DNA of 64,000 nucleotides, from positions 70,429 through 134,428 of the IMG/VR virus record IMGVR_UViG_3300044624_002142; one strand, 5' to 3'. The DNA is from a virus. The translations under genes and the position numbers were made by a program. The notes below the pieces were generated by a model. That model saw nothing but the letters and a program-made list of their open reading frames with translations, was not told the DNA's origin and ran no database searches. Positions 2,461 to 64,000 of this stretch are shown here, one piece after another (positions within the stretch are counted from its first letter, which is position 1; the number at the start of each line of letters is the position of its first letter).

Positions 2461-3167
2461 GTGAGTGACGCTCCTTTAAATCGTGGATATTCCACCATAT
2501 TTTTATCTTTATGAACCATTAGTTTGTTAACAGGCAAATCCCAATGTTCTGGATATGACATACTAGGACTTAAAATAGCCGTATCGGTTCGATGATCAAC
2601 TATAAATTTGTTTAGGTGAGATTCATCATGCCATACTGCAATGATATTGTTTTGAAGATCCGTACTGATGTTATTCTTCATTAAATTGACCATATATTCG
2701 ATGTGACTTCCTTTTGCACCCCATACACATCCTTGAACGTATACACAATTATGTTTTTCTGGAATATATGCGGTTGAATTAACATTAGTCTCGACTGGCC
2801 AGAACTTTTGATTTAAAATCACAGACGGATGACAAACCGCAAAATACTTCTTTTGTCCAACATCAAAATTACTCAATGTATCTACAAATTCCATATCACT
2901 ATCAATATAGAAAATATAATCATATTGAGACAACTCTTTTAAACATTCGGATATAAATTCAAATCGTTTGAGAGTAATATATGGCCATGGTTCATGATTG
3001 ATCTTGTACCACTTTATAGAATCATCAAACCAGTCTAATTTTTCATCGGTAAAGAAGTAAAAGTCTTTTTGAACATGTGGAATAAAATATTTTTGGATAG
3101 AAGTCCACAATGGATGTAGAAACGTTTTATATTTATTTGTGGCCAACGTAATAACGGCAATCTTCAT
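2457..3167 (-). CDS. GT6 family (ABO-like alpha-1,3-Gal/GalNAc) glycosyltransferase
   Basis: IAVITLATNKY, YFFTD, WPYITLKRF, YIDSD, WHDESHLNK motifs characteristic of GT6. Confidence 0.85.
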   Translation of the reverse strand: MKIAVITLATNKYKTFLHPLWTSIQKYFIPHVQKDFYFFTDEKLDWFDDSIKWYKINHEPWPYITLKRFEFISECLKELSQYDYIFYIDSDMEFVDTLSNFDVGQKKYFAVCHPSVILNQKFWPVETNVNSTAYIPEKHNCVYVQGCVWGAKGSHIEYMVNLMKNNISTDLQNNIIAVWHDESHLNKFIVDHRTDTAILSPSMSYPEHWDLPVNKLMVHKDKNMVEYPRFKGASLT

Positions 3168-3170
3168 AAC

Positions 3171-4001
3171 TTAATAATTGGTCAGATACTTGACATCTGT
3201 ATAATAGGTATTTAACTGATCTTGATTCATATCACTCAGTTTTTTATATAAATCGTTGTTAGATTTAAAGTATGGGTTTTTGTCGCTGGAATCAGATCCA
3301 CGACAATGTTCAACATGATATACAAATCCTTTATCAAGATGGGTAACCATAGTATCAAATTTTTTGAATCGTTCATATCGTTCACGATCTTCTGGACCAT
3401 ATGAGATAAAATGTTCATTCTCCCAACCATACTTTTTATATGTGGAAGTATTAAAGAACTGACAGTGACCGTATTCCGAAATACAATCCGAATAATCATG
3501 AGAGGTAAGTTCCACAAGTGACCCTTGGTTTAATAACTTTTCTCTACCAGATGTGTTAACTTTCTTTTGAAACTTGCCTATTGCAAATGGATAAACTAAA
3601 TCATGATTTTGTCGGATGATCTTTTTGTACGCTTGTAGATATGATTCTATTGGAAGAATTACATCTGCATCATAATTAACTGTTATTGTTGTGTTTGATA
3701 ACGATAACATTCGGTTTAAGTATCTTGTTCTATGAAACGAGTCATCTGGTACGTTTTGATGAATGTATGTTACGTCATCTTTGATTACCGATGGTATAAC
3801 CGCTTCTTTTGAACATTCATATACGATGATGTTTGTTTCAAAATTACGACGTAAATATTCATATACAATAGTGAAGTTTTTCTTTCGGTCTTCACTTTCA
3901 ATACAAACGGGTATGATAAATGTACAATCTTGTAATGGAATTAAACCATCTGTGATTGTTTTCGCTTTTTGTATTGTTTGAATTTCTTTCGGAATTTTCA
4001 T
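3171..4001 (-). CDS. GT2/GT7C galactosyltransferase-like protein
   Basis: TFIIPV, NYDADV, GWENEHFISYGPED; start moved to ATG 4001 (ATGA overlap with upstream stop). Confidence 0.7.
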   Translation of the reverse strand: MKIPKEIQTIQKAKTITDGLIPLQDCTFIIPVCIESEDRKKNFTIVYEYLRRNFETNIIVYECSKEAVIPSVIKDDVTYIHQNVPDDSFHRTRYLNRMLSLSNTTITVNYDADVILPIESYLQAYKKIIRQNHDLVYPFAIGKFQKKVNTSGREKLLNQGSLVELTSHDYSDCISEYGHCQFFNTSTYKKYGWENEHFISYGPEDRERYERFKKFDTMVTHLDKGFVYHVEHCRGSDSSDKNPYFKSNNDLYKKLSDMNQDQLNTYYTDVKYLTNY

Positions 4002-52970: not shown

Positions 52971-54155
52971 TTATACAGCTACAGGCATTTTAATGTGTGC
53001 TTGAGGATTATAGTCCACAATATCAATGTGGTCAAACTTAATATCAAACAAATTGGTAGGACATTCTGGCTTTAAAACCAACTTAGGCAATTTACCGGGA
53101 GTTCTAGTCAATTGTTCTGTAATTCCTTCTTGTTGGTTTTCATAGATATGTACATCAGCACCACTATAAACTAATTGACTTGGAATCATATTTAAACAAT
53201 GAGCCATCAAGTGAGTAAATAGAGCATAAAAAGCGATGTTGTATGGTAAACCTAATGGTGCGTCCGTACTGCGCATATTAAAGTAACAATTCAAACGATA
53301 TTTTGGAATATAATGATCTGTAAGAAGGGAATCGTAATCTGTAAATCCATTTTTATTCCACTCATTCTTTGCTTCTTCTACATTCCATCCATTTGAAAAA
53401 ATATTAAATCTTTCTTCTAGGGTCAATTCTTCTGTACCAAACTGAATATAATTGTGACAGGCTGGCAATAGAGCATCTTCTCGGTTATTACTATGATATG
53501 GATGCCATGCGGTAATAATGATTCTACGACTATCTGGATTGTTCTTTAGTGTGTCTATTACATCAACTAACTGATCTACATGTCCAACTTCACAAGCGTA
53601 TCCACCACTTGTTTCATAATGACAATCTAATTTAGCACCAATTGTAGTTGTAGTAGGAACTTTGTTGCAATGGGGATCACTATCATCATAAAAAGGAAAC
53701 TTTCTCCACATTCCACCATAACCATATTGTCCAATGCTACCCCACGTTTTGGCAAATTCATCGTTATTGATGATTTCTTGTTCAAATTCTTTTTGTGTCA
53801 TTTCACGCACACAATTTTTTTCAAGATCCTCGATATGAACATCATAATCGGGGTCGGTGAGTGTTTTGCAATGGTTAAGATACTTTTGATAGGGCCATTC
53901 TGTCCAGAATGTAACACCATTCTTTAGAAGATACTGAATGTTAGTATCTCCTTTAATCATCCACAGTAGTTCATGCACTACACTCTTCCAGTGCATTTTC
54001 TTTGTAGTAAGTAGAGGAAATCCACTTTGTAGATTAACATACATTTGAGCACCCCAAACTTTACGGGTATTTATACCGGTTCGATTCTTGGAGAGTGTGC
54101 CTACCTCACAAATGTCATTTAGTAAGTTGATATATTGTTCTTCGTAATTATTCAT
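52971..54155 (-). CDS. thyA: Thymidylate synthase with insertions
   Basis: RTG, FPLLTTKK, ELLW, DSRRII, LPACH, RSTD..LGLPYN, DVHIY. Confidence 0.95.
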   Translation of the reverse strand: MNNYEEQYINLLNDICEVGTLSKNRTGINTRKVWGAQMYVNLQSGFPLLTTKKMHWKSVVHELLWMIKGDTNIQYLLKNGVTFWTEWPYQKYLNHCKTLTDPDYDVHIEDLEKNCVREMTQKEFEQEIINNDEFAKTWGSIGQYGYGGMWRKFPFYDDSDPHCNKVPTTTTIGAKLDCHYETSGGYACEVGHVDQLVDVIDTLKNNPDSRRIIITAWHPYHSNNREDALLPACHNYIQFGTEELTLEERFNIFSNGWNVEEAKNEWNKNGFTDYDSLLTDHYIPKYRLNCYFNMRSTDAPLGLPYNIAFYALFTHLMAHCLNMIPSQLVYSGADVHIYENQQEGITEQLTRTPGKLPKLVLKPECPTNLFDIKFDHIDIVDYNPQAHIKMPVAV

Positions 54156-55006: not shown

Positions 55007-55383
55007 ACAGATACAGTTCTGTTATACCTTTCAATAATGTTACGAATATTATTTGCACCCACCGGATTCATACTATGAACCACATATGGTGGATGTTTAA
55101 TACTCTTATTGTTGCACTGATTAAGTAGAAACTGACAACAGTCATAACCAGTTTTTTCTGTGTATTGACTATAATCAATTTCATCACCATTCAATCCATG
55201 ACCATAATGTTTGTCTGCCAAATCATGATCATACGCAACGAACTCAGGAATACCCAAACTCAATATAATGTTACGAAATTCTGAATAGTTACGAATAATA
55301 GTCCACTCCACGTTAGGCAGTTTAACCCATCTAACATCATTTGGAATTCTAATATCGTCCAAAAATAAATAATACTTGTTCAT
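55003..55383 (-). CDS. Cyclic-phosphate-processing receiver-like domain protein
   Basis: LFLDD.R.P, .DHDL, TGYD, VHS.NP.G..NI; next to Pnk. Confidence 0.7.
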   Translation of the reverse strand: MNKYYLFLDDIRIPNDVRWVKLPNVEWTIIRNYSEFRNIILSLGIPEFVAYDHDLADKHYGHGLNGDEIDYSQYTEKTGYDCCQFLLNQCNNKSIKHPPYVVHSMNPVGANNIRNIIERYNRTVSV

Positions 55384-55838
55384 ACAAAATGCACTTCATC
55401 AAAACCTTCTTCTTTTGAAGGTTCAACATAATTAGTCAACATACGATCAATAACATCCACAGGAACGTTTCTGCCTCCCGTTTCCCCACGCTTTTTATTG
55501 CGTTCTATCAATGTATCACGATTCACAACAAAAACGTAGGCAGTCAATATTGCACCATGTTGCTTTGCCAAAGTAATCCAAACTTTACGTGCTTTACGAT
55601 GCATATTGGTTGCGTCAATACACACATCTTTTCCTTCACTCAAAAGTCGATCAACTTCGTTCTCCATGTGTTCAAATACACGACCACTAACAGTTTGATC
55701 GTTTTCATTCTTGCCAAATACTGCACGAAGAGCATCACTGCTCAAAAATGTGGTATCGGCATGAGTTGTCTTATACTTTTCAACCCACGTTGATTTTCCA
55801 CTTCCGGGTGCTCCAACTGTAATTATAAAGTTGTTCAT
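55380..55838 (-). CDS. Polynucleotide kinase-like P-loop kinase (AAA_33)
   Basis: GAPGSGKSTW, SSDALR, IDATN, RN..R..R.VP; start at ATG 55838. Confidence 0.85.
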   Translation of the reverse strand: MNNFIITVGAPGSGKSTWVEKYKTTHADTTFLSSDALRAVFGKNENDQTVSGRVFEHMENEVDRLLSEGKDVCIDATNMHRKARKVWITLAKQHGAILTAYVFVVNRDTLIERNKKRGETGGRNVPVDVIDRMLTNYVEPSKEEGFDEVHFV

Positions 55839-55844
55839 ATGGTT

Positions 55845-55873
55845 ACTGTATAGTAAGAAAAATAGTTTGTAAA
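55845..55873 (-). promoter_or_regulatory. sigma70-like promoter (TTTACA-17-TACAGT), leaderless
   Basis: -10 box ends 6 nt before ATG 55838. Confidence 0.45.
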
Positions 55874-55899
55874 GTCGTTTTTTATTTATATTTATCATC

Positions 55900-56688
55900 A
55901 TGGACTATAAAGACTTTTTTAAACATTTATTTGAAGCTAAAAAACCAAACGGTGATGAAGGAGACGATTGGGTTAGACCAGGCAGCGATTTGGAACCGGG
56001 AATGAAAATTGGAGGAACGAATTTTCCTCATGGATTGGGTTATCCAAATTATAGACCCAAACACAACGATGATGAAGATTTTAAAGAAACCGCACATATT
56101 GATCACATAGTTGATGTTCCATATGAACACTCAGATCAAGATGATAAAAAACGTACCGGGGTTCTTTATAAGTACATAAAAGATAAAATGCCAGAGTTTT
56201 ATCAAAAGTTTCAGTCTTACATAGACCGTCTATTTGCAGAATACGAAAATTATTGGTCCATGCACCATTGGTTAATTAGTTTTATTGATTTGGCAAAAAC
56301 CGATCCTTCTCATAAGAATATCCCCGATGAACTTAAAAACCTAAATATTACAGATCAGGATATTGAAAATGTTAAAAAAATACACGATACGTATCATAAA
56401 TTGTATAGTTTGATACATCATCGTAATGATTCTCACAATGAATTGAATTATCCGTTATACGTCAGTTTATATGATATTACAAGAGCACTAGGAGGATATG
56501 AGGAAGGTGGTTGGTGGTATGATAAATATGAATTGATTGATACTATCCCAATACGTACTCCAAGTGAATTAATACCTACCGCAGAAAAGTTATACGGAAA
56601 AATAGGTAGAAATTTTAATGGAAAACCTAGTATTGTTGTTGAAAAAGAAAGTGGCAGTCAAGAAAAAGAACCACCACACTATAGTTAA
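55900..56688 (+). CDS. Hypothetical protein with MDYKDFF..LFE N-terminus; putative internal head protein
   Basis: N-terminal motif shared with 35975 and 37982; ATATTTAT upstream; C-terminal GGYEEGGWWY. Confidence 0.6.
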   Translation: MDYKDFFKHLFEAKKPNGDEGDDWVRPGSDLEPGMKIGGTNFPHGLGYPNYRPKHNDDEDFKETAHIDHIVDVPYEHSDQDDKKRTGVLYKYIKDKMPEFYQKFQSYIDRLFAEYENYWSMHHWLISFIDLAKTDPSHKNIPDELKNLNITDQDIENVKKIHDTYHKLYSLIHHRNDSHNELNYPLYVSLYDITRALGGYEEGGWWYDKYELIDTIPIRTPSELIPTAEKLYGKIGRNFNGKPSIVVEKESGSQEKEPPHYS

Positions 56689-57704
56689 TCGTTGTATTTA
56701 AGTTCGAATGGCTCACTAATAATCTTACCAGACAAACGTCCCTTTAGAGTCTCACTATAAGTCTCTACAGTAGGACGAATTACAATACCCTCAGCTAGAT
56801 TACCATTCTCATAAACGAGATTGTTGGCAAAATTCTGCAATTCTTGAAGAGTCCTGTCGAAAAAAGTACCATCCTCAATGGTTTCAACAACAGGAATATC
56901 ATTCACATCACAAAATCTCAAAAGCTCGTTACGATCAAGATACTTGTAGTTATCAATGTCAAATAGATTGAATGCACGAAACTGAATATCCTTAACCCCA
57001 AGTAGATTTCCTTGAATGCCAGGTCCGTAAACCTCACCTTGAATGGCAAGGTTACGACCATCATTCTTCAATTTGGTCTCAAGATCATACTTTCTAGCAA
57101 CACCCCAAAAACTATTCTTATCGTCTTCTTTGAGTTGATAGTTTCGACTACAAACACCAAATCCAACATCGTTCTTGTAGAAGTAAGTTCCACTGCTACC
57201 ATCCACCTTCACAGTAATATAGTATGGCTTTCCGGTAAGCTCTTGAATGATCTCGGGATTGTTCTTAATGTTGTCTTCATCCGTCTTACGAAGATATGAA
57301 GGCATAAGACCATATACTTGTCCAGAAAGTTGTGCAGAAAGAGGCTTCTCATAGTGTTTAGCGTAAACATATTGACTTACATCACTTCCGATAACATCTG
57401 GCTCTGTAAACACAACGGTATCATGTCCAAGAGTCTTGAATAAACTCATGGGAAATGCGATACCCTGACTGATTTGACCACGAAGTTTGACGGTCTTAAT
57501 ACGGAAATTCTTGTTACGCAAGAACTCATATATGGGTTTGTCTTCAAGAACGCTATCAACGCAAATATAGATGCAAAGATCACCTTTCTTAAATTCACCT
57601 TTTTTAATACATACCTGCCACCCTTTGATCTTGGCGAGTTCAAGAGCGTCAGCATTTGGGTGAGGAATTACCTCAGCGATTTCTTCGATTGTAGCAACTT
57701 TCAT
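56685..57704 (-). CDS. ATP-dependent RNA ligase, DRB0094/Rnl5-like with N-terminal OB fold
   Basis: HPNADALELA, KLRGQISQG, KTDE, TVKVDGSS, CSRN, QGEVYG.GIQ.N, EGIV. Confidence 0.9.
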   Translation of the reverse strand: MKVATIEEIAEVIPHPNADALELAKIKGWQVCIKKGEFKKGDLCIYICVDSVLEDKPIYEFLRNKNFRIKTVKLRGQISQGIAFPMSLFKTLGHDTVVFTEPDVIGSDVSQYVYAKHYEKPLSAQLSGQVYGLMPSYLRKTDEDNIKNNPEIIQELTGKPYYITVKVDGSSGTYFYKNDVGFGVCSRNYQLKEDDKNSFWGVARKYDLETKLKNDGRNLAIQGEVYGPGIQGNLLGVKDIQFRAFNLFDIDNYKYLDRNELLRFCDVNDIPVVETIEDGTFFDRTLQELQNFANNLVYENGNLAEGIVIRPTVETYSETLKGRLSGKIISEPFELKYND

Positions 57705-59974: not shown

Positions 59975-60002
59975 ATTATAATCACAAAGACCCAAATGTC
60001 AA
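59975..60002 (-). promoter_or_regulatory. Consensus sigma70 promoter TTGACA-16-TATAAT
   Basis: Exact consensus hexamers, 9 nt before ATG 59965. Confidence 0.7.
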
Positions 60003-60100
60003 CAATTTTGTAAAGGAGGTGTAAAATAAAAAACTAACAAGTAATTGAACCATATGTATCTTTGAACATCAGCGTCAAGCTGAACCACGAAAGGAAATTT

Positions 60101-60403
60101 ATGAAGTATGTTTTGTTAGTATTATTGACTGCAGTTGCTTTAAATGCCCAAGAAGGTCCAAAGGGTCAACCTCCCGGTGAAGGCCGTCCTCCACGCCCAA
60201 AATTGACAGAGGAACAAAAGAAACAACGTGATTCTATTGTTTCAAAGTATGACGCAAACAAGGATGGCAAATTGGATAAGGAAGAACGTCTCAAGGTCAG
60301 TGACGAAGATCGTAAGACTTTGAGAAGTTTTGGTCCACCTCCTGGCGGTCCAAGAGGTCCAAAGAAAGATGGTCCGCCACCAACTAAACCGAAGAAGCAT
60401 TAA
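60101..60403 (+). CDS. Secreted EF-hand, Pro/Gly-rich protein
   Basis: AAAGGA RBS, signal peptide MKYVLLVLLTAVALNA, YDANKDGKLDKEE loop. Confidence 0.7.
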   Translation: MKYVLLVLLTAVALNAQEGPKGQPPGEGRPPRPKLTEEQKKQRDSIVSKYDANKDGKLDKEERLKVSDEDRKTLRSFGPPPGGPRGPKKDGPPPTKPKKH

Positions 60404-60409
60404 ACAAAC

Positions 60410-60434
60410 AACCTCACTTTATAGTGGGGTTTTT
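60410..60434 (+). terminator. Intrinsic terminator between convergent genes
   Basis: AACCTCACT-TTAT-AGTGGGGTT-TTT hairpin. Confidence 0.6.
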
Positions 60435-60759
60435 ATCTATTACGTCTTCTCTTTTTTCTTGTGGGTTTCTTTTTATTACCGCTGACTTTTTCCAAGAACA
60501 TTTCGCTTACTATTTCTACTAATTTTAGACCTAAGAATCCTACGATGAAAGCAATACCATTTTGATGTTTAACATTGGTAATATTTAGAGTATCTACCAA
60601 TACAGGTGTTAAGAAATTAGCTGAAGCCATACCGCCTACCAATGATAATACTACAGATTTTACATCTGTTTTAGCTGCTTTTGTTGCCATCAATATTGCA
60701 CCGAATAAACCACTGAACAAGAATCCTATTTGTATACCGTATTTTTGTAATTGTTCCAT
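60433..60759 (-). CDS. Holin-like three-TM protein
   Basis: Three hydrophobic helices (SGLFGA, GGMASANFLTP, AFIVGFLGL) and strongly basic tail. Confidence 0.5.
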   Translation of the reverse strand: MEQLQKYGIQIGFLFSGLFGAILMATKAAKTDVKSVVLSLVGGMASANFLTPVLVDTLNITNVKHQNGIAFIVGFLGLKLVEIVSEMFLEKVSGNKKKPTRKKRRRNR

Positions 60760-60762
60760 ATG

Positions 60763-61395
60763 CTATTTCTTCCGGTTACTTTTTCTTTTTGTTTTTGTAA
60801 CGGATTTTATAACAGGTTTAATTTCGTGCTTTATTAGAACTATTAATCCTAATATTATGAAACTGAGTGTATATAAATATATGTTTAATAAAGTTAATTC
60901 ATCTTTAATAATAGTTTCTGAACTATCATTGATTAACGTTTTGAATGTTTGATTGTTATCATATATTCTTTTTTTGTACCCCAAGTATTTTTCACTGAAA
61001 AATGCTTTATTATCCATCTTTTCAAACGCTGCATTTTCTACATCTTTAGCCAAATCATTGCTAATATCCAATCCTTTTCTAAATTCTTTGGTTTCATCTT
61101 GGGTTAATAATTTAGATGTAAATACTTCTTCATTAAAGTATTTTTCTCGTTCTTTTAAATGGTCATTGAATTGATTGAGAAAATTCTTATCACCAGTGGT
61201 TGTATAAGCCGCACCTAAGTAAGTTAATAAATCAGTGGACTTACGCAAGTATAGTGTTATATCTCTGCCAAATCTAAATCTGGTATATCCATGTTCTATA
61301 TCTTTGATGCATGATATGGATAATATGGTAATAATTGCTACGGGTAATAATACAAACCATAGATAAGACTTTATTTTTGTAATAACAGTGTTCAT
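60763..61395 (-). CDS. Two-TM protein with chemoreceptor-like periplasmic helical domain and no cytoplasmic output domain
   Basis: STDLLT....AY..TGD..FL..F, SNDL...E..AF, FS.KY..YK..I; TMs at both ends. Confidence 0.5.
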   Translation of the reverse strand: MNTVITKIKSYLWFVLLPVAIITILSISCIKDIEHGYTRFRFGRDITLYLRKSTDLLTYLGAAYTTTGDKNFLNQFNDHLKEREKYFNEEVFTSKLLTQDETKEFRKGLDISNDLAKDVENAAFEKMDNKAFFSEKYLGYKKRIYDNNQTFKTLINDSSETIIKDELTLLNIYLYTLSFIILGLIVLIKHEIKPVIKSVTKTKRKSNRKK

Positions 61396-61415
61396 ATGTT
61401 ATTATATAAATATTA

Positions 61416-61448
61416 TAAAAAAATAAAACCCACTAAATTAATAGTGGG
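61416..61448 (-). terminator. Intrinsic terminator after RNA ligase
   Basis: CCCACTA-loop-TAGTGGG hairpin followed by T-rich run on minus strand. Confidence 0.65.
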
Positions 61449-61458
61449 GGGTATCGTT

Positions 61459-62565
61459 TTAGTTCTTCAATACTTGAAATAGTAACTTCTTATATTCTTC
61501 CTTGCCTAACGACTTACCATCAAGCAACTTGAACAAAAATGAAGCTCTATTAGTATTACCATAAGCTGAAATTACTTGTTCAGCCTGTAACTTACGAGTA
61601 GGTAGAGTCTTGAGTCTGTTATTCACAAAATCATTCATCCCACTCACAATTAGATCAACTTCCTTCTTGGCATCACAAATACGGCTAATCATGCCACGGC
61701 ACTGTTCAGCCAATTCGTAATCGAAGGTGGTAAAGATATAGTTATAGAAAGTCTGATAGTCAGGCATACCTTGTTCTAACCAGACATCTATAACCTTTTC
61801 TATATTGCTTAGCTCGCTCTTCATATGATGTAGAGCAAGATACCACGCACCCTTTACCTTGTGAAGCATTTGGTCATTCTTTGAATAAACAACTACACCT
61901 TCCTTACCTCTCCATTGGTCAACATCCTTTAACAGATCTTCAACACCAGAAAAAGTATAGGTAGGAGGGCGTTTGAGATGAAACTCATTAGCCATCTCAT
62001 TCAAACGGGATTGACACCACACAGAGTAGTGATCGTGATTTACCACGCCAACCAAATACCAGTCTGGTTCATCACCATAGTTCAACACAATCTTGTTGAT
62101 AGGACTAACCCACTCAAACAAAATAGAATAGTGCCAACTACCGTTTATATCGACGGGCAAACAAACATCAAGGGTCTTGAGAATAGTATTCTTGAACAGT
62201 TCCAACTCATGACCATTAGCCATAGTAGAAGCATCAACAGTTCCACGGGTACGTAGAATGTATTTGCCGTTATGCTTGCTAACAATCAACAATGAACCAT
62301 CAAGCTTTTCAACCACGGTACAATGATTCAACGAATTGGGAACTGGAAAGTGTTCAGGATTCTCGCCCCAGTTGGTAAACTTTGGAAAGCCTGCACTGAT
62401 AACTTCACCAGCATAATTCACAACCACACTACGCATGTGCTTGTTGTCTTGATGCCACTTGGTGCCGATATGTTGAGGTTGAATCAAATAAACAATTTCA
62501 CCATTAAGTGAATGTTCATGCACCATAAATTGTGAACGGTCTATAGTTGATATGTCTACGATCAT
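61459..62565 (-). CDS. T4 Rnl1-like RNA ligase
   Basis: FPKFTNWGE, VEKLDGSL, TRG, FEWVSP.N.IV..Y, EGVV, KVK..WY..LH. Confidence 0.88.
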   Translation of the reverse strand: MIVDISTIDRSQFMVHEHSLNGEIVYLIQPQHIGTKWHQDNKHMRSVVVNYAGEVISAGFPKFTNWGENPEHFPVPNSLNHCTVVEKLDGSLLIVSKHNGKYILRTRGTVDASTMANGHELELFKNTILKTLDVCLPVDINGSWHYSILFEWVSPINKIVLNYGDEPDWYLVGVVNHDHYSVWCQSRLNEMANEFHLKRPPTYTFSGVEDLLKDVDQWRGKEGVVVYSKNDQMLHKVKGAWYLALHHMKSELSNIEKVIDVWLEQGMPDYQTFYNYIFTTFDYELAEQCRGMISRICDAKKEVDLIVSGMNDFVNNRLKTLPTRKLQAEQVISAYGNTNRASFLFKLLDGKSLGKEEYKKLLFQVLKN

Positions 62566-63521
62566 ATTTTAATCTTACCACACATTTAAGTTTTGTCAAC
62601 TTCTTTTGAATCAATTTTCATCACACTCCTATTTATTAGTATGCATAACTTTTATACATATTTACTCATTGATCCACGTAACAATAAACCATTTTATGTC
62701 GGTAAGGGAACAAAAAGAAGAATGACTATTCATGAACGAAAAACAAAATTGGGCAAAATTCCAAATAACAACATTTATTTGTATAACAAAATTAAAAAAA
62801 TACTCAGCGGAGGATTAAACCTTAAATATAAGAAAGTAGTAAATAATGTTGAAGAGCATGTTGCTTTTTATTGGGAAAATCGTATTATTAGTTGCCTCCG
62901 TCAAAAGGGATATGATCTGTGCAATGTAGGGGATGGTGGCAAAGCTACTAAAGGCAATTTAGGTAAAAAATGGTCTCCCGAAAGTAAACAAAAAATGTCA
63001 GAAGCTAGAAAAGGATTTTTATCTTTACAGTGGTTTATAGAAAAACATGGCGTTGAGCAAGGCACTGAATTGTACAAAAAAAGAATTCATACGCTAAAAA
63101 AATCACAAGTTGGTAGAAAACCCGCAGCTCCAATAACTGAAGAAACAAGAAATAAGTTGGTTATTTCACATTTGGGCAAAAAACAGTCTTTGGAAACCAT
63201 AAAGAAACGAAGTAAATCAATGAAAGGAAAACTCAAAGGCTTCGTTCATACTGATGAGTTCAGAAAAAAAATTAGTATGGCTAAAAAAGGTATACCGTCT
63301 CCAATGAAAGGAAAAAAACATTCAATGAATAGCAGATTGCAAATGAAAAACTCCCATGTTAAAAACTATGTATTGGTGTCGCCGCAAGGAGAAGTTACCA
63401 ATATCATATGTTTGAAAGACTTTTGTAAGTTACATGGTCTTAACTATGGCAATATGTCAAGCATGGCGACGGGTAATAGAAAAAGTTGTCACGGTTGGGT
63501 ACGATATATTCCAATCCCATG
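62533..63521 (+). mobile_element. Homing-endonuclease cassette inserted at the 5' end of the RNA ligase gene
   Basis: Carries the GIY-YIG gene plus a second promoter and 11-codon rnl start; a homologous start lies at 63522-63588; boundaries approximate. Confidence 0.55.
62572..62599 (-). promoter_or_regulatory. sigma70-like promoter (TTGACA-16-TAAGAT), leaderless, drives RNA ligase
   Basis: TG extended -10, 6 nt before ATG 62565. Confidence 0.6.
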
Positions 63522-63522
63522 A
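62641..63522 (+). CDS. GIY-YIG homing endonuclease with NUMOD3 repeats
   Basis: FYTYLLIDPR...PFYVGKG...R...H, E...I, L.N...GG; repeats GKKWSPESKQKMSEA, HTDEFRKKISMA, GKKHS. Confidence 0.88.
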   Translation: MHNFYTYLLIDPRNNKPFYVGKGTKRRMTIHERKTKLGKIPNNNIYLYNKIKKILSGGLNLKYKKVVNNVEEHVAFYWENRIISCLRQKGYDLCNVGDGGKATKGNLGKKWSPESKQKMSEARKGFLSLQWFIEKHGVEQGTELYKKRIHTLKKSQVGRKPAAPITEETRNKLVISHLGKKQSLETIKKRSKSMKGKLKGFVHTDEFRKKISMAKKGIPSPMKGKKHSMNSRLQMKNSHVKNYVLVSPQGEVTNIICLKDFCKLHGLNYGNMSSMATGNRKSCHGWVRYIPIP

Positions 63523-63554
63523 GTGAGGTCAACCTTTTGAATGTCAATCTTCAT
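63489..63554 (-). pseudogene. Stranded original 5' end of the RNA ligase gene (MKIDIQKVDLT)
   Basis: Aligns with MIVDISTIDRS at the ligase start, then reads into the antisense strand of the endonuclease and stops after 21 aa. Confidence 0.55.
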
Positions 63555-63560
63555 TCAATC

Positions 63561-63588
63561 AATTTACCACGACTTTAAAGAAAGTCAA
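63561..63588 (-). promoter_or_regulatory. sigma70-like promoter (TTGACT-16-TAAATT), leaderless
   Basis: Same geometry and GTGGTAA as the 62572-62599 promoter; 6 nt before ATG 63554. Confidence 0.55.
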
Positions 63589-63999
63589 TCATAGAAAGGT
63601 TACATTTTCAAATCCAACGATACGACCACCCTTTGCATTAATATTATCACTAATCGTCACTTGATAAGTGTCTGGTCTAATTCCAGTAATGTAGAGGTTC
63701 TCATACTTACGAGAACCCTGTTTAGCATTAACTTTCTTACCAACTACATCATCTGAAATAGTCAAAAAATTTTCCTTAACCCATTGCTTCAACATTTCAT
63801 CTTCCAGAGACTTCTTGACATAGATCATATCATCCAAAATATCTACAAGTCCAGCATCTGGCTCAAGATAGATCTTAGATTTTAGATATTCTGCCAAATT
63901 ATAACCATCCAAGTCATATTCAAAGAGACAATTAAAAATGTCATCTTCATATGTCTCACGTGGCTCATCAGCAGTGATAGACTCATTCCATTTCTGGTA
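63589..63999 (-). CDS. Hypothetical protein, 5' end beyond the window
   Basis: Frame is open from 63999 (YQKWNESITADEPRETYEDD...) through the track ORF. Confidence 0.55.
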   Translation of the reverse strand, partial: YQKWNESITADEPRETYEDDIFNCLFEYDLDGYNLAEYLKSKIYLEPDAGLVDILDDMIYVKKSLEDEMLKQWVKENFLTISDDVVGKKVNAKQGSRKYENLYITGIRPDTYQVTISDNINAKGGRIVGFENVTFL

Positions 64000-64000
64000 G

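Follow-up and report, generated by a model that had tools for sequence, protein, structure and literature searches.

A homing endonuclease cassette that probably gives a phage RNA ligase gene a substitute promoter and first 11 codons

Introduction

Homing endonucleases are, to our knowledge, usually thought to enter coding genes only by way of an intron or intein, and otherwise to stay in intergenic positions. Intronless homing by the free-standing Seg and Mob endonucleases of T4-type phages is said to have been treated by Belle et al. in 2002 and by Edgell et al. in 2010, and the MobA/gene 60 cassette of T4-like phages reportedly by Bonocora et al. in 2011. A mobile endonuclease open reading frame (ORF) with a foreign gene end was reportedly described by Paquin et al. 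in 1994 for atp6 of Allomyces macrogynus. Integrating elements likewise carry replacement gene ends, as in tRNA genes and in E. coli icd with e14 or phage 21. Here we describe a locus within 64,000 nucleotides of a viral sequence (IMG/VR record IMGVR_UViG_3300044624_002142, positions 70,429 to 134,428; this whole stretch is referred to as the window), in which a homing endonuclease gene interrupts an RNA ligase gene after codon 11. The 990-base insert probably supplies the ligase gene with a promoter and its first 11 codons, without any splicing.

Two types of described element come closest. In fungal mitochondria, mobile endonuclease ORFs (mORFs) with a foreign gene end have been reported for Glomus atp6, atp9, cox2 and nad3 (PMC3630166), and partial C-terminal duplications of cob and atp6 lie beside endonuclease ORFs (PMC6279837). 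In these elements, the native gene end remains nearby, unused and 91–98% identical to relatives, and the imported end is 64–81% identical at the DNA level and conserved as protein (PMC3630166; PMC6279837). In T4-like phages, the MobA/gene 60 cassette spans about 1.1 kb and includes a diverged replacement, HomR, and a MobA accessory sequence protects the carrier genome from its own endonuclease (bioRxiv 10.1101/2022.08.31.505936). A phage endonuclease element that supplies both promoter and N-terminus was not found in the literature searched, supplementary tables not being covered.

Results

The ligase gene (61459..62565, minus strand) is intact and encodes a 368-amino-acid protein of the Rnl1 type (Pfam RNA_lig_T4_1, E 5.7e-14, 52.9 bits against a cut-off of 28.3; PHROG 562, E 1.5e-38), with the motif I lysine in VEKLDGS and with K87, D89 and G90 invariant in 35 sequences. 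Its ATG at 62565, which opens the ORF starting MIVDISTIDRSQFMVHEH, follows a promoter (P2, 62572..62599, minus strand) that reads TTGACA at 62599-62594, a 16-nt spacer ending in TGG, TAAGAT at 62577-62572 and 6 nt up to the start codon, and that agrees with the consensus at 10 of 12 positions plus the TG. The first 11 codons (MIVDISTIDRS, 62533..62565, minus strand; referred to as head c) run in frame into codon 12 of the resident gene. An intact endonuclease gene (62641..63522, plus strand, 293 amino acids) lies antisense to the ligase, and beyond it a second ligase start was found, orphaned. This start comprises what appears to be the original ligase promoter (P1, 63561..63588, minus strand), with TTGACT at 63588-63583, a 16-nt spacer ending in TGG, TAAATT at 63566-63561 and 6 nt to an ATG at 63554, followed by what appear to be the original codons 1–11 (MKIDIQKVDLT, 63522..63554, minus strand; referred to as stub a). 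Beyond these codons the frame of stub a is antisense to the endonuclease ORF, and it closes after 21 codons in all (ORF 63489-63554). Both the orphaned start, running into the antisense endonuclease gene from 63588-63522, and the start heading the ligase past that gene are present where an initial annotation of the window had described them.

Which of the two heads belongs to the gene was examined in relatives. An IMG/VR scan with the ligase returned 62 loci (L001–L062), or 60 after leaving out two rows of the source phage, and a large protein collection returned 1,429 ligase matches, from which counts were taken over the best 120 cluster representatives. In these other loci, a promoter of this layout leads straight into the ligase. 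The exact MKIDIQKVDLTQFMVHEH start was found in 6 of the 60, with one-residue variants (IEKVDLT or IQKIDLT) in a further 17. The initial annotation had predicted that endonuclease-free relatives would join stub and ligase body to read MKIDIQKVDLTQFMV; the exact starts of those 6 loci bear this out, and so do 61 of the best 120 of the 1,429 matches, which start with the predicted sequence. As for relatives starting MIVDISTIDRS, which the same annotation had named as contrary evidence, none of the 60 begins with MIVD and no MIV start occurs among the best 120 of the 1,429. At the DNA level, P1 (counted to the ATG) agrees at 33/34 bases with the promoter from which the ligase is read in L018 and L037, stub a is 32/33 identical to the heads of L006, L010, L018, L037 and L038, and the two together (63588-63522) match the working ligase start of the endonuclease-free L018 and L037 at 65 of 67 bases, a likeness far above chance. 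Stub a thus represents the commonest natural head of the ligase gene, and the head now in use is foreign to the clade.

A sharp change in relatedness marks the border of head c. Codons 12–30 are identical (57/57) to those of L006, L019, L020, L037 and L038, and codons 12–33 differ from the nearest relative by 0%, while head c differs by at least 39% from all 23 close relatives. It matched 25 of the 26 relatives compared at 17–20 of its 33 bases, L058 at 14/33 and the distant L049 at 25/33, and it shares 18 of 33 bases with stub a, the other 15 being different. A degenerate pattern for DISTIDRSQFMVHEH was found only in the second contig of the source phage, and no donor lineage was identified from it. 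We also considered whether codons 1–11 form a hypervariable arms-race zone; this idea was dropped, the mean pairwise difference over the 23 close relatives being 0.233 there and 0.223 in the whole gene.

The head seems to matter to the protein, because K2, I3 and D9 are conserved (in 38, 39 and 39 of 40 distinct relatives, respectively) and because residues 1–10 averaged a predicted local distance difference test score (pLDDT) of 93 in an AlphaFold model built on 35 sequences (mean pLDDT 84.8). Positions 4, 5 and 8 are also constrained in the 40 relatives. Head c keeps D4, I5, I8 and D9 and has I2 and V3 in place of K2 and I3, so that it looks like a piece taken from a divergent ligase allele and not like a synonymous rewrite. 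The initial annotation was therefore right that the insert supplies a substitute 5′ end, and overstated the case in calling that end recoded, since K2 and I3 are changed.

The limits of the insert were read from metagenomic contigs. Four runs (X1, X12, X13 and X15, the last an RNA library) were mapped on 62000-64000 at 90% likeness. Contigs of X1 and X12 (30 letters per side) and of X15 (a 981-letter contig with 66 letters on its shorter side) join 62532 to 63523 and so skip 990 bases; one G, read as C on the ligase strand, stands between the two positions, and this joint reads as in relatives, CTCAC-C-CAATTT; the insert is accordingly exactly 62533-63522. It has no spare sequence at either edge: on the left it closes with the complement of the endonuclease stop codon, and on the right with codon 11 of head c. 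The roughly 1-kb insertion at codons 11–12 proposed initially is thus fixed to the base. The X15 empty-site contig comes from a relative, because 43 letters in about 500 on its ligase side (about 9%) are different.

Filled sites were recovered as well, from an X13 contig (62399-63572) crossing both junctions, an X12 contig (62503-63611) crossing the left junction and an X1 contig (62503-63552) that covers the cassette without differences and reaches 30 letters into each flank. Filled and empty sites are therefore both present in the same lakes, and at least 80% of the sampled words of 62300-63800 are present in 14 public lake or freshwater runs. The X13 contig carries eight differences, at least six in 184 flank letters and at most two in 990 cassette letters (Fisher p = 3e-4, a test that overstates independence because five of the flank differences cluster in 13 bases). 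The cassette thus occurs on a second flank haplotype. In the RNA run X15 there was no cover over 62536-63473 and the long contig is the empty-site relative, which makes this run uninformative on transcription.

Because the record was assembled from the metagenome of a community rich in close relatives, reads from two related phages might have been joined into a chimera. We give this explanation hardly any credence: an independent IMG/VR contig (L003), a second assembly of the source phage, is 100% identical over 7,603 bases with both junctions included, and the X13 and X12 contigs (62399-63572 and 62503-63611), from separate runs, span the junctions as well.

The insert might also be a group I or other self-splicing intron, with the ligase made from a spliced transcript begun at P1. 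Group I introns with endonuclease genes are frequent in phage genes, and stub a would indeed continue in frame into codon 12 if the 990 bases were taken out. However, no intron family, group I models included, came up when 60000-64000 was searched by Rfam cmscan at E ≤ 1, the only matches being two irrelevant weak ones elsewhere, in line with the initial annotation, which had proposed an insert that is not spliced. Moreover, the endonuclease is antisense to its host gene, the last part of the insert is a complete promoter with a start codon and 11 codons of the family head pattern, none of which a spliced intron would need, and the roughly 75 cassette bases outside both the endonuclease ORF and the substitute head are too few for a ribozyme core. 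An intron is thus very improbable, and an intein is excluded because the endonuclease ORF is antisense; the endonuclease appears to lie in neither.

The direction of the event reads as insertion, because the stub a type is widespread as a working head and because excision by way of two heads sharing 18/33 bases is implausible. It also appears recent, since stub a and P1 are almost undecayed (1 change in 33 and 1 in 34 bases). In the opposite scenario the filled arrangement would be ancestral, and the empty alleles would be products of a deletion that removed the endonuclease region. Losses of homing endonuclease genes are frequent in general. A 'hit and run' loss is also described for MobA (bioRxiv 10.1101/2022.08.31.505936). 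A precise deletion would nevertheless need recombination between stub a and head c over their few shared bases, the stub type is the commonest working head over many backgrounds (61 of the best 120 of 1,429), and a non-coding stub kept since the origin of the family would have decayed, as a third head copy (see below) has. We consider an ancestral filled state about as improbable as an intron.

The endonuclease itself belongs to a recognizable family. Its match to the Pfam LEM-3 GIY-YIG family is marginal (27.9 bits against a cut-off of 27), NUMOD3 is matched in two stretches (Pfam, E 8.8e-16), GIY-YIG domain proteins in the PDB are matched over residues 4–56 (E 4.5e-4), and a PHROG 314 (homing endonuclease) match includes the C-terminal region. 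The C-terminal third is MobE-like, with 39% identity over 84 residues to MobE of Aeromonas phage Aeh1. Nine full-length relatives with 51–85% identity begin at the same methionine, which confirms the start at 62641. In the alignment of these 10 members Y5/T6/Y7, Y19/V20/G21, R27, H31, E79 and N95 are invariant, residues that we take to be the equivalents of the catalytic residues of I-TevI. The exact protein is on record from 27 contigs.

The endonuclease is a single-copy gene in the 126,384-base record, it is absent from the records of four relatives (one of them rated 100% complete), and among the other related loci it occurs in none apart from L003. Scans with the endonuclease returned only L003 plus eight weak partial matches in IMG/VR and seven weak partial matches in JGI metagenomes, and tblastn in 50,697 phage records gave only partial, distant matches (22–52%). 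A profile scan with the 10-member alignment kept 80 loci, all at 26–52% identity, and, the contig of the source phage excepted, none of the 80 has the ligase or its upstream neighbour beside it. The absences from related loci and the nine intact relatives with their conserved motif columns mark the endonuclease as sporadic and yet maintained as a family. None of the contigs of the nine relatives equals in length a contig of the best 120 of the 1,429 ligase matches, a listing that covers a small part of these matches. Separately, L035 has a distant, partial GIY-YIG match (32% over 151 residues; L035:3148-3588, minus strand), which lies downstream of its ligase at a distance of about 2 kb.

Inside the cassette the ligase head is present a third time, in decayed form (relic b, 62586..62621, minus strand; MKIDSKEVDKT followed by TAA), which the initial annotation had overlooked. 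Its ATG at 62621 has AGGAG just upstream (62630-62626) and lies 19 bases from the endonuclease start. In the 64-kb window, searched on both strands, relic b is the best non-self local match of stub a (33, the next scoring 28), and it lies in the same orientation as the ligase about 30 nt upstream of the working start. The GTTGAC of its codons 8–9 provides the –35 hexamer of P2. The simplest account may be an older unequal exchange between the TTGAC of a coding head and the TTGAC of a ligase promoter, which would imply an earlier round of head duplication. As a side observation, the stop of relic b abuts an ATG (TAAATG) that opens a 7-codon frame (62586-62566, minus strand), whose TGA in turn shares bases with the ATG of the working ligase (ATGA); such a chain of stops and starts could link the translation of read-through RNA to the ligase start, or could be chance in A+T-rich sequence.

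P1 and P2 belong to a wider set. The layout TTGAC-N15-18-(T)GGTAAnnT-N6/7-ATG heads the ligase, the gene upstream of it, a kinase-like gene and others across the related loci, and it occurs four times in the record, always on the minus strand near the cassette (57738, 62599, 63588 and the equivalent of 64142). The initial annotation had taken the identical geometry of the two ligase promoters as evidence of duplication; this argument does not hold, the shared geometry reflecting a family-wide promoter class and not proving duplication. In a promoter scan the number of sites was not significant in itself (27 against 24.1 expected).

With only 6 nt between the –10 hexamer and the ATG, the usual sigma-70 spacing would place the first transcribed base at the A of the AUG or beside it. 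The transcripts are thus probably leaderless, and the ligase, the upstream gene, the second RNA ligase and the kinase-like gene of this phage family all appear to be of this kind. For a leaderless gene a self-sufficient head is unusually compact, 67 bases sufficing for promoter, start codon and 11 codons. No terminator-like site was seen between P1 and the endonuclease gene, and, more speculatively, transcripts from P1 may run antisense through that gene and damp its expression.

A possible parallel was seen at L058, whose ligase is 52% identical. There, an ORF for a 284-amino-acid LAGLIDADG endonuclease (Pfam E 5.4e-8; 3065-3919, minus strand, within L058:3042-4000), unrelated to the GIY-YIG endonuclease, lies antisense directly upstream of the ligase promoter. 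This promoter (TTGACAAAA...GTGGTAAGATT) matches P2 at 24 and the common promoter at 22 of 34 positions, and the 5′ part of the ligase is very divergent. Upstream of the LAGLIDADG stop, a truncated common promoter of about 17 bases, beginning TTGACTTTC, directly follows the stop of the preceding gene. The likeness to our cassette is suggestive only, the boundaries of the L058 element not being set for lack of a close endonuclease-free partner.

The surroundings of the ligase start are variable in general. The conserved upstream gene (3′ part at 63589..64000, minus strand; 173 amino acids, no Pfam family) was found in 42 other loci at 60–95% amino acid identity. Its TGA stop (63591-63589) abuts the –35 hexamer of P1, and its start and own leaderless-type promoter lie just beyond the window end (window-equivalent 64142). 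Between this gene and the ligase promoter, relatives have 35 to 1,954 bases with varying small genes, which makes the interval a general insertion hotspot. The ligase gene is strongly mosaic across L002–L062. The ligase of L019 is at least 97% identical to that of the window over most of the first 720 bases (minus the first 30) and less than 65% beyond, and those of L037, L038 and L039 are near-identical to it only in 5′ blocks.

Taken together, the hotspot and the mosaicism fit a different origin, in which a free-standing endonuclease located upstream of a divergent donor ligase was copied in one repair event with an illegitimate joint. The stub and the substitute head would then be accidental by-products, and the arrangement would persist in one lineage. 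The single cassette sequence found so far and the left joint, which coincides with the endonuclease stop codon and past which homology ends, also agree with such a one-off accident. On the other hand, near-identical homology to the commonest empty allele extends over a long distance on both sides, so that homing would be automatic if the enzyme cuts; the cassette is found with two or more flank haplotypes; the endonuclease gene has stayed intact and comes from a maintained family; and, although the almost undecayed stub makes the event recent, 14 runs or more already contain the allele. We regard a one-off repair accident as unlikely, and as the serious rival to a homing cassette.

Two further arrangements at ligase starts were noted. 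In L056 (L056:3652-4010) and likewise in L057, an unrelated gene of 100 codons sits exactly at the position of the ligase ATG and is driven by the common ligase promoter, and the ligase starts 15 bases past the stop of this inserted gene with no promoter and no obvious ribosome-binding site. In L005 and L012, the ligase start (the first 33 bases, encoding MKIDLDTVDSS, and the 35 bases with the promoter before them) is unlike the common head, with only 19 of 33 bases shared, the next 57 bases agree with the window at 47 (L005) or 55 (L012) positions, and no endonuclease is nearby. The head of L005 and L012 may be a swapped head remaining after loss of an endonuclease.

The source record is rated about 40% complete, and its relatives include a contig of 295,831 bases rated 100% complete; the source phage belongs to a family of roughly 300-kb lake-water phages. 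A DNA search of 61400-64000 against the 50,697 phage records gave no match. The genes around the cassette are mostly on the minus strand and include a second RNA ligase (56685-57704), an AAA_33 kinase-like protein (55380-55901) and a weak GmrSD-like protein. A terminator-like hairpin with a T run (61429..61448, minus strand) lies just past the ligase stop. A foreign base composition of the cassette was considered and dropped: its G+C content is 32.7%, that of the record 34.1%, and 38% of 990-base windows have an equal or lower value.

Two genes farther away drew attention. The thymidylate synthase ORF (52971-54155, minus strand) covers the whole 266-position Pfam profile end to end with 394 amino acids, so that about 130 residues are extra and might represent an insertion. 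Between the kinase-like gene and the second RNA ligase, a plus-strand ORF of 262 amino acids (55900-56688) without a Pfam family lies in the minus-strand block and may be another inserted gene.

Discussion

The anatomy of the locus, its exact boundaries, the empty site, the recency of the insertion and the intactness of both genes are established by these comparisons. The reading that we favour, and hold to be probable, is that a 990-base homing endonuclease cassette entered the ligase gene after codon 11 and provides it with a promoter and 11 codons, without splicing. The cassette would consist of two outward-facing parts, namely the endonuclease gene, reading toward the old start, and a promoter of the leaderless class with 11 codons. 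The ligase would be made from the cassette promoter and start codon with no need for RNA or protein splicing, and the old promoter and 11 codons would remain as a dead stub. In a mixed infection, the endonuclease would be expected to cut the uninterrupted head-to-body junction of cassette-free phages, and the break would be repaired from the cassette-bearing genome, the stub side and the body of the ligase gene serving as regions of homology. The carrier allele would be immune, because its site is split by 990 bases and head c differs from stub a at 15 of 33 bases, so that the cut junction would not be restored. The founding event would have taken one non-homologous joint, at the endonuclease stop codon, and relic b might point to an earlier round of head duplication or replacement.

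Several points weigh against this reading. Cleavage, homing, transcript starts and the target site are predicted from sequence alone. Every full copy of the cassette is one sequence in essentially one phage lineage, the cassette of the second IMG/VR contig being identical and the X13 copy differing by at most two bases, and the design is known from one member of the endonuclease family. The empty-site joints of X1 and X12 extend 30 letters per side at 90% likeness, and all empty-site contigs may come from related phages and not from an otherwise identical genome. The five clustered flank differences of X13, all within 13 bases, may be one recombination patch, and, the ligase being mosaic, ordinary recombination could also move the cassette between backgrounds. 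Head c alters K2 and I3, which makes full ligase activity an assumption. Finally, the promoter scan gave no convincing promoter for the endonuclease.

A broader idea is that, in this family of lake phages, compact heads of a promoter, a start codon and a few codons, such as leaderless genes allow, act as portable patches that would let unrelated endonuclease families invade the starts of useful genes with no need for splicing. It would fit the architecture shared by the cassette and L058, each with an antisense endonuclease, a fresh ligase promoter and a truncated old promoter. It would also fit relic b as a record of repeated invasion and re-heading, and P1 firing antisense through the endonuclease gene as a possible brake. 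We offer this generalization tentatively and think it rather doubtful as yet.

If our reading of the cassette is correct, phages offer endonucleases a third route into genes, in which the endonuclease enters at the 5′ end and brings a spare promoter and gene head. The comparative evidence for this cassette is unusually clean, and it makes a simple, testable system: both junctions, filled and empty, are mapped with single-base precision, and the intact endonuclease has as its expected target the allele that is commonest in nature. For annotation, orphan promoters with mini-ORF stubs beside endonuclease genes become readable as footprints of invasion, and an annotation that took the upstream copy for the real start would misplace the beginning of the ligase. 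New here are relic b, a LAGLIDADG endonuclease at the same place and in the same orientation in L058, and the promoter class.

Among known systems, integrating phages and elements resemble the cassette in duplicating the end of the target gene and in leaving a working gene and an unused duplicate. They use site-specific integrases and att sites and replace 3′ ends, whereas the cassette concerns a 5′ end and presumably relies on double-strand-break repair. For the free-standing Seg (GIY-YIG) and Mob (HNH) endonucleases, the likenesses to the cassette enzyme are a GIY-YIG catalytic domain with NUMOD3 and C-terminal DNA-binding modules, a sporadic distribution and the lack of an intron or intein. 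Their usual position is intergenic, and they cut a gene next to it in phages that lack the endonuclease, while the cassette endonuclease lies inside a coding sequence together with a substitute head.

The mORFs and MobA are closer to the cassette. MobA and the cassette are both phage endonuclease units in a coding gene, with replacement of the target region and a new downstream start. In the MobA case, however, the topoisomerase gene is divided so that two working polypeptides with added tails are made, and a 50-nt translational bypass is used, whereas the cassette has no second working protein and no bypass, leaves a dead 11-codon stub and includes a promoter. As for the fungal mORFs, these and the cassette alike place a LAGLIDADG or GIY-YIG ORF in a coding gene with a diverged duplicate of the gene end in frame, and in both the native end is near-identical to relatives, the imported end is divergent in DNA yet conserved as protein, and no splicing is involved. 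The differences are that the cassette endonuclease is antisense, that the host is a bacteriophage and that the replaced piece is far shorter (11 codons). Moreover, the mORFs replace the 3′ end (C-terminus) and use the host promoter and start, whereas the cassette replaces the 5′ end, and for that reason must also bring a promoter and a start codon. In this sense, the cassette mirrors the C-terminal replacement elements of fungal mitochondria and MobA of T4.

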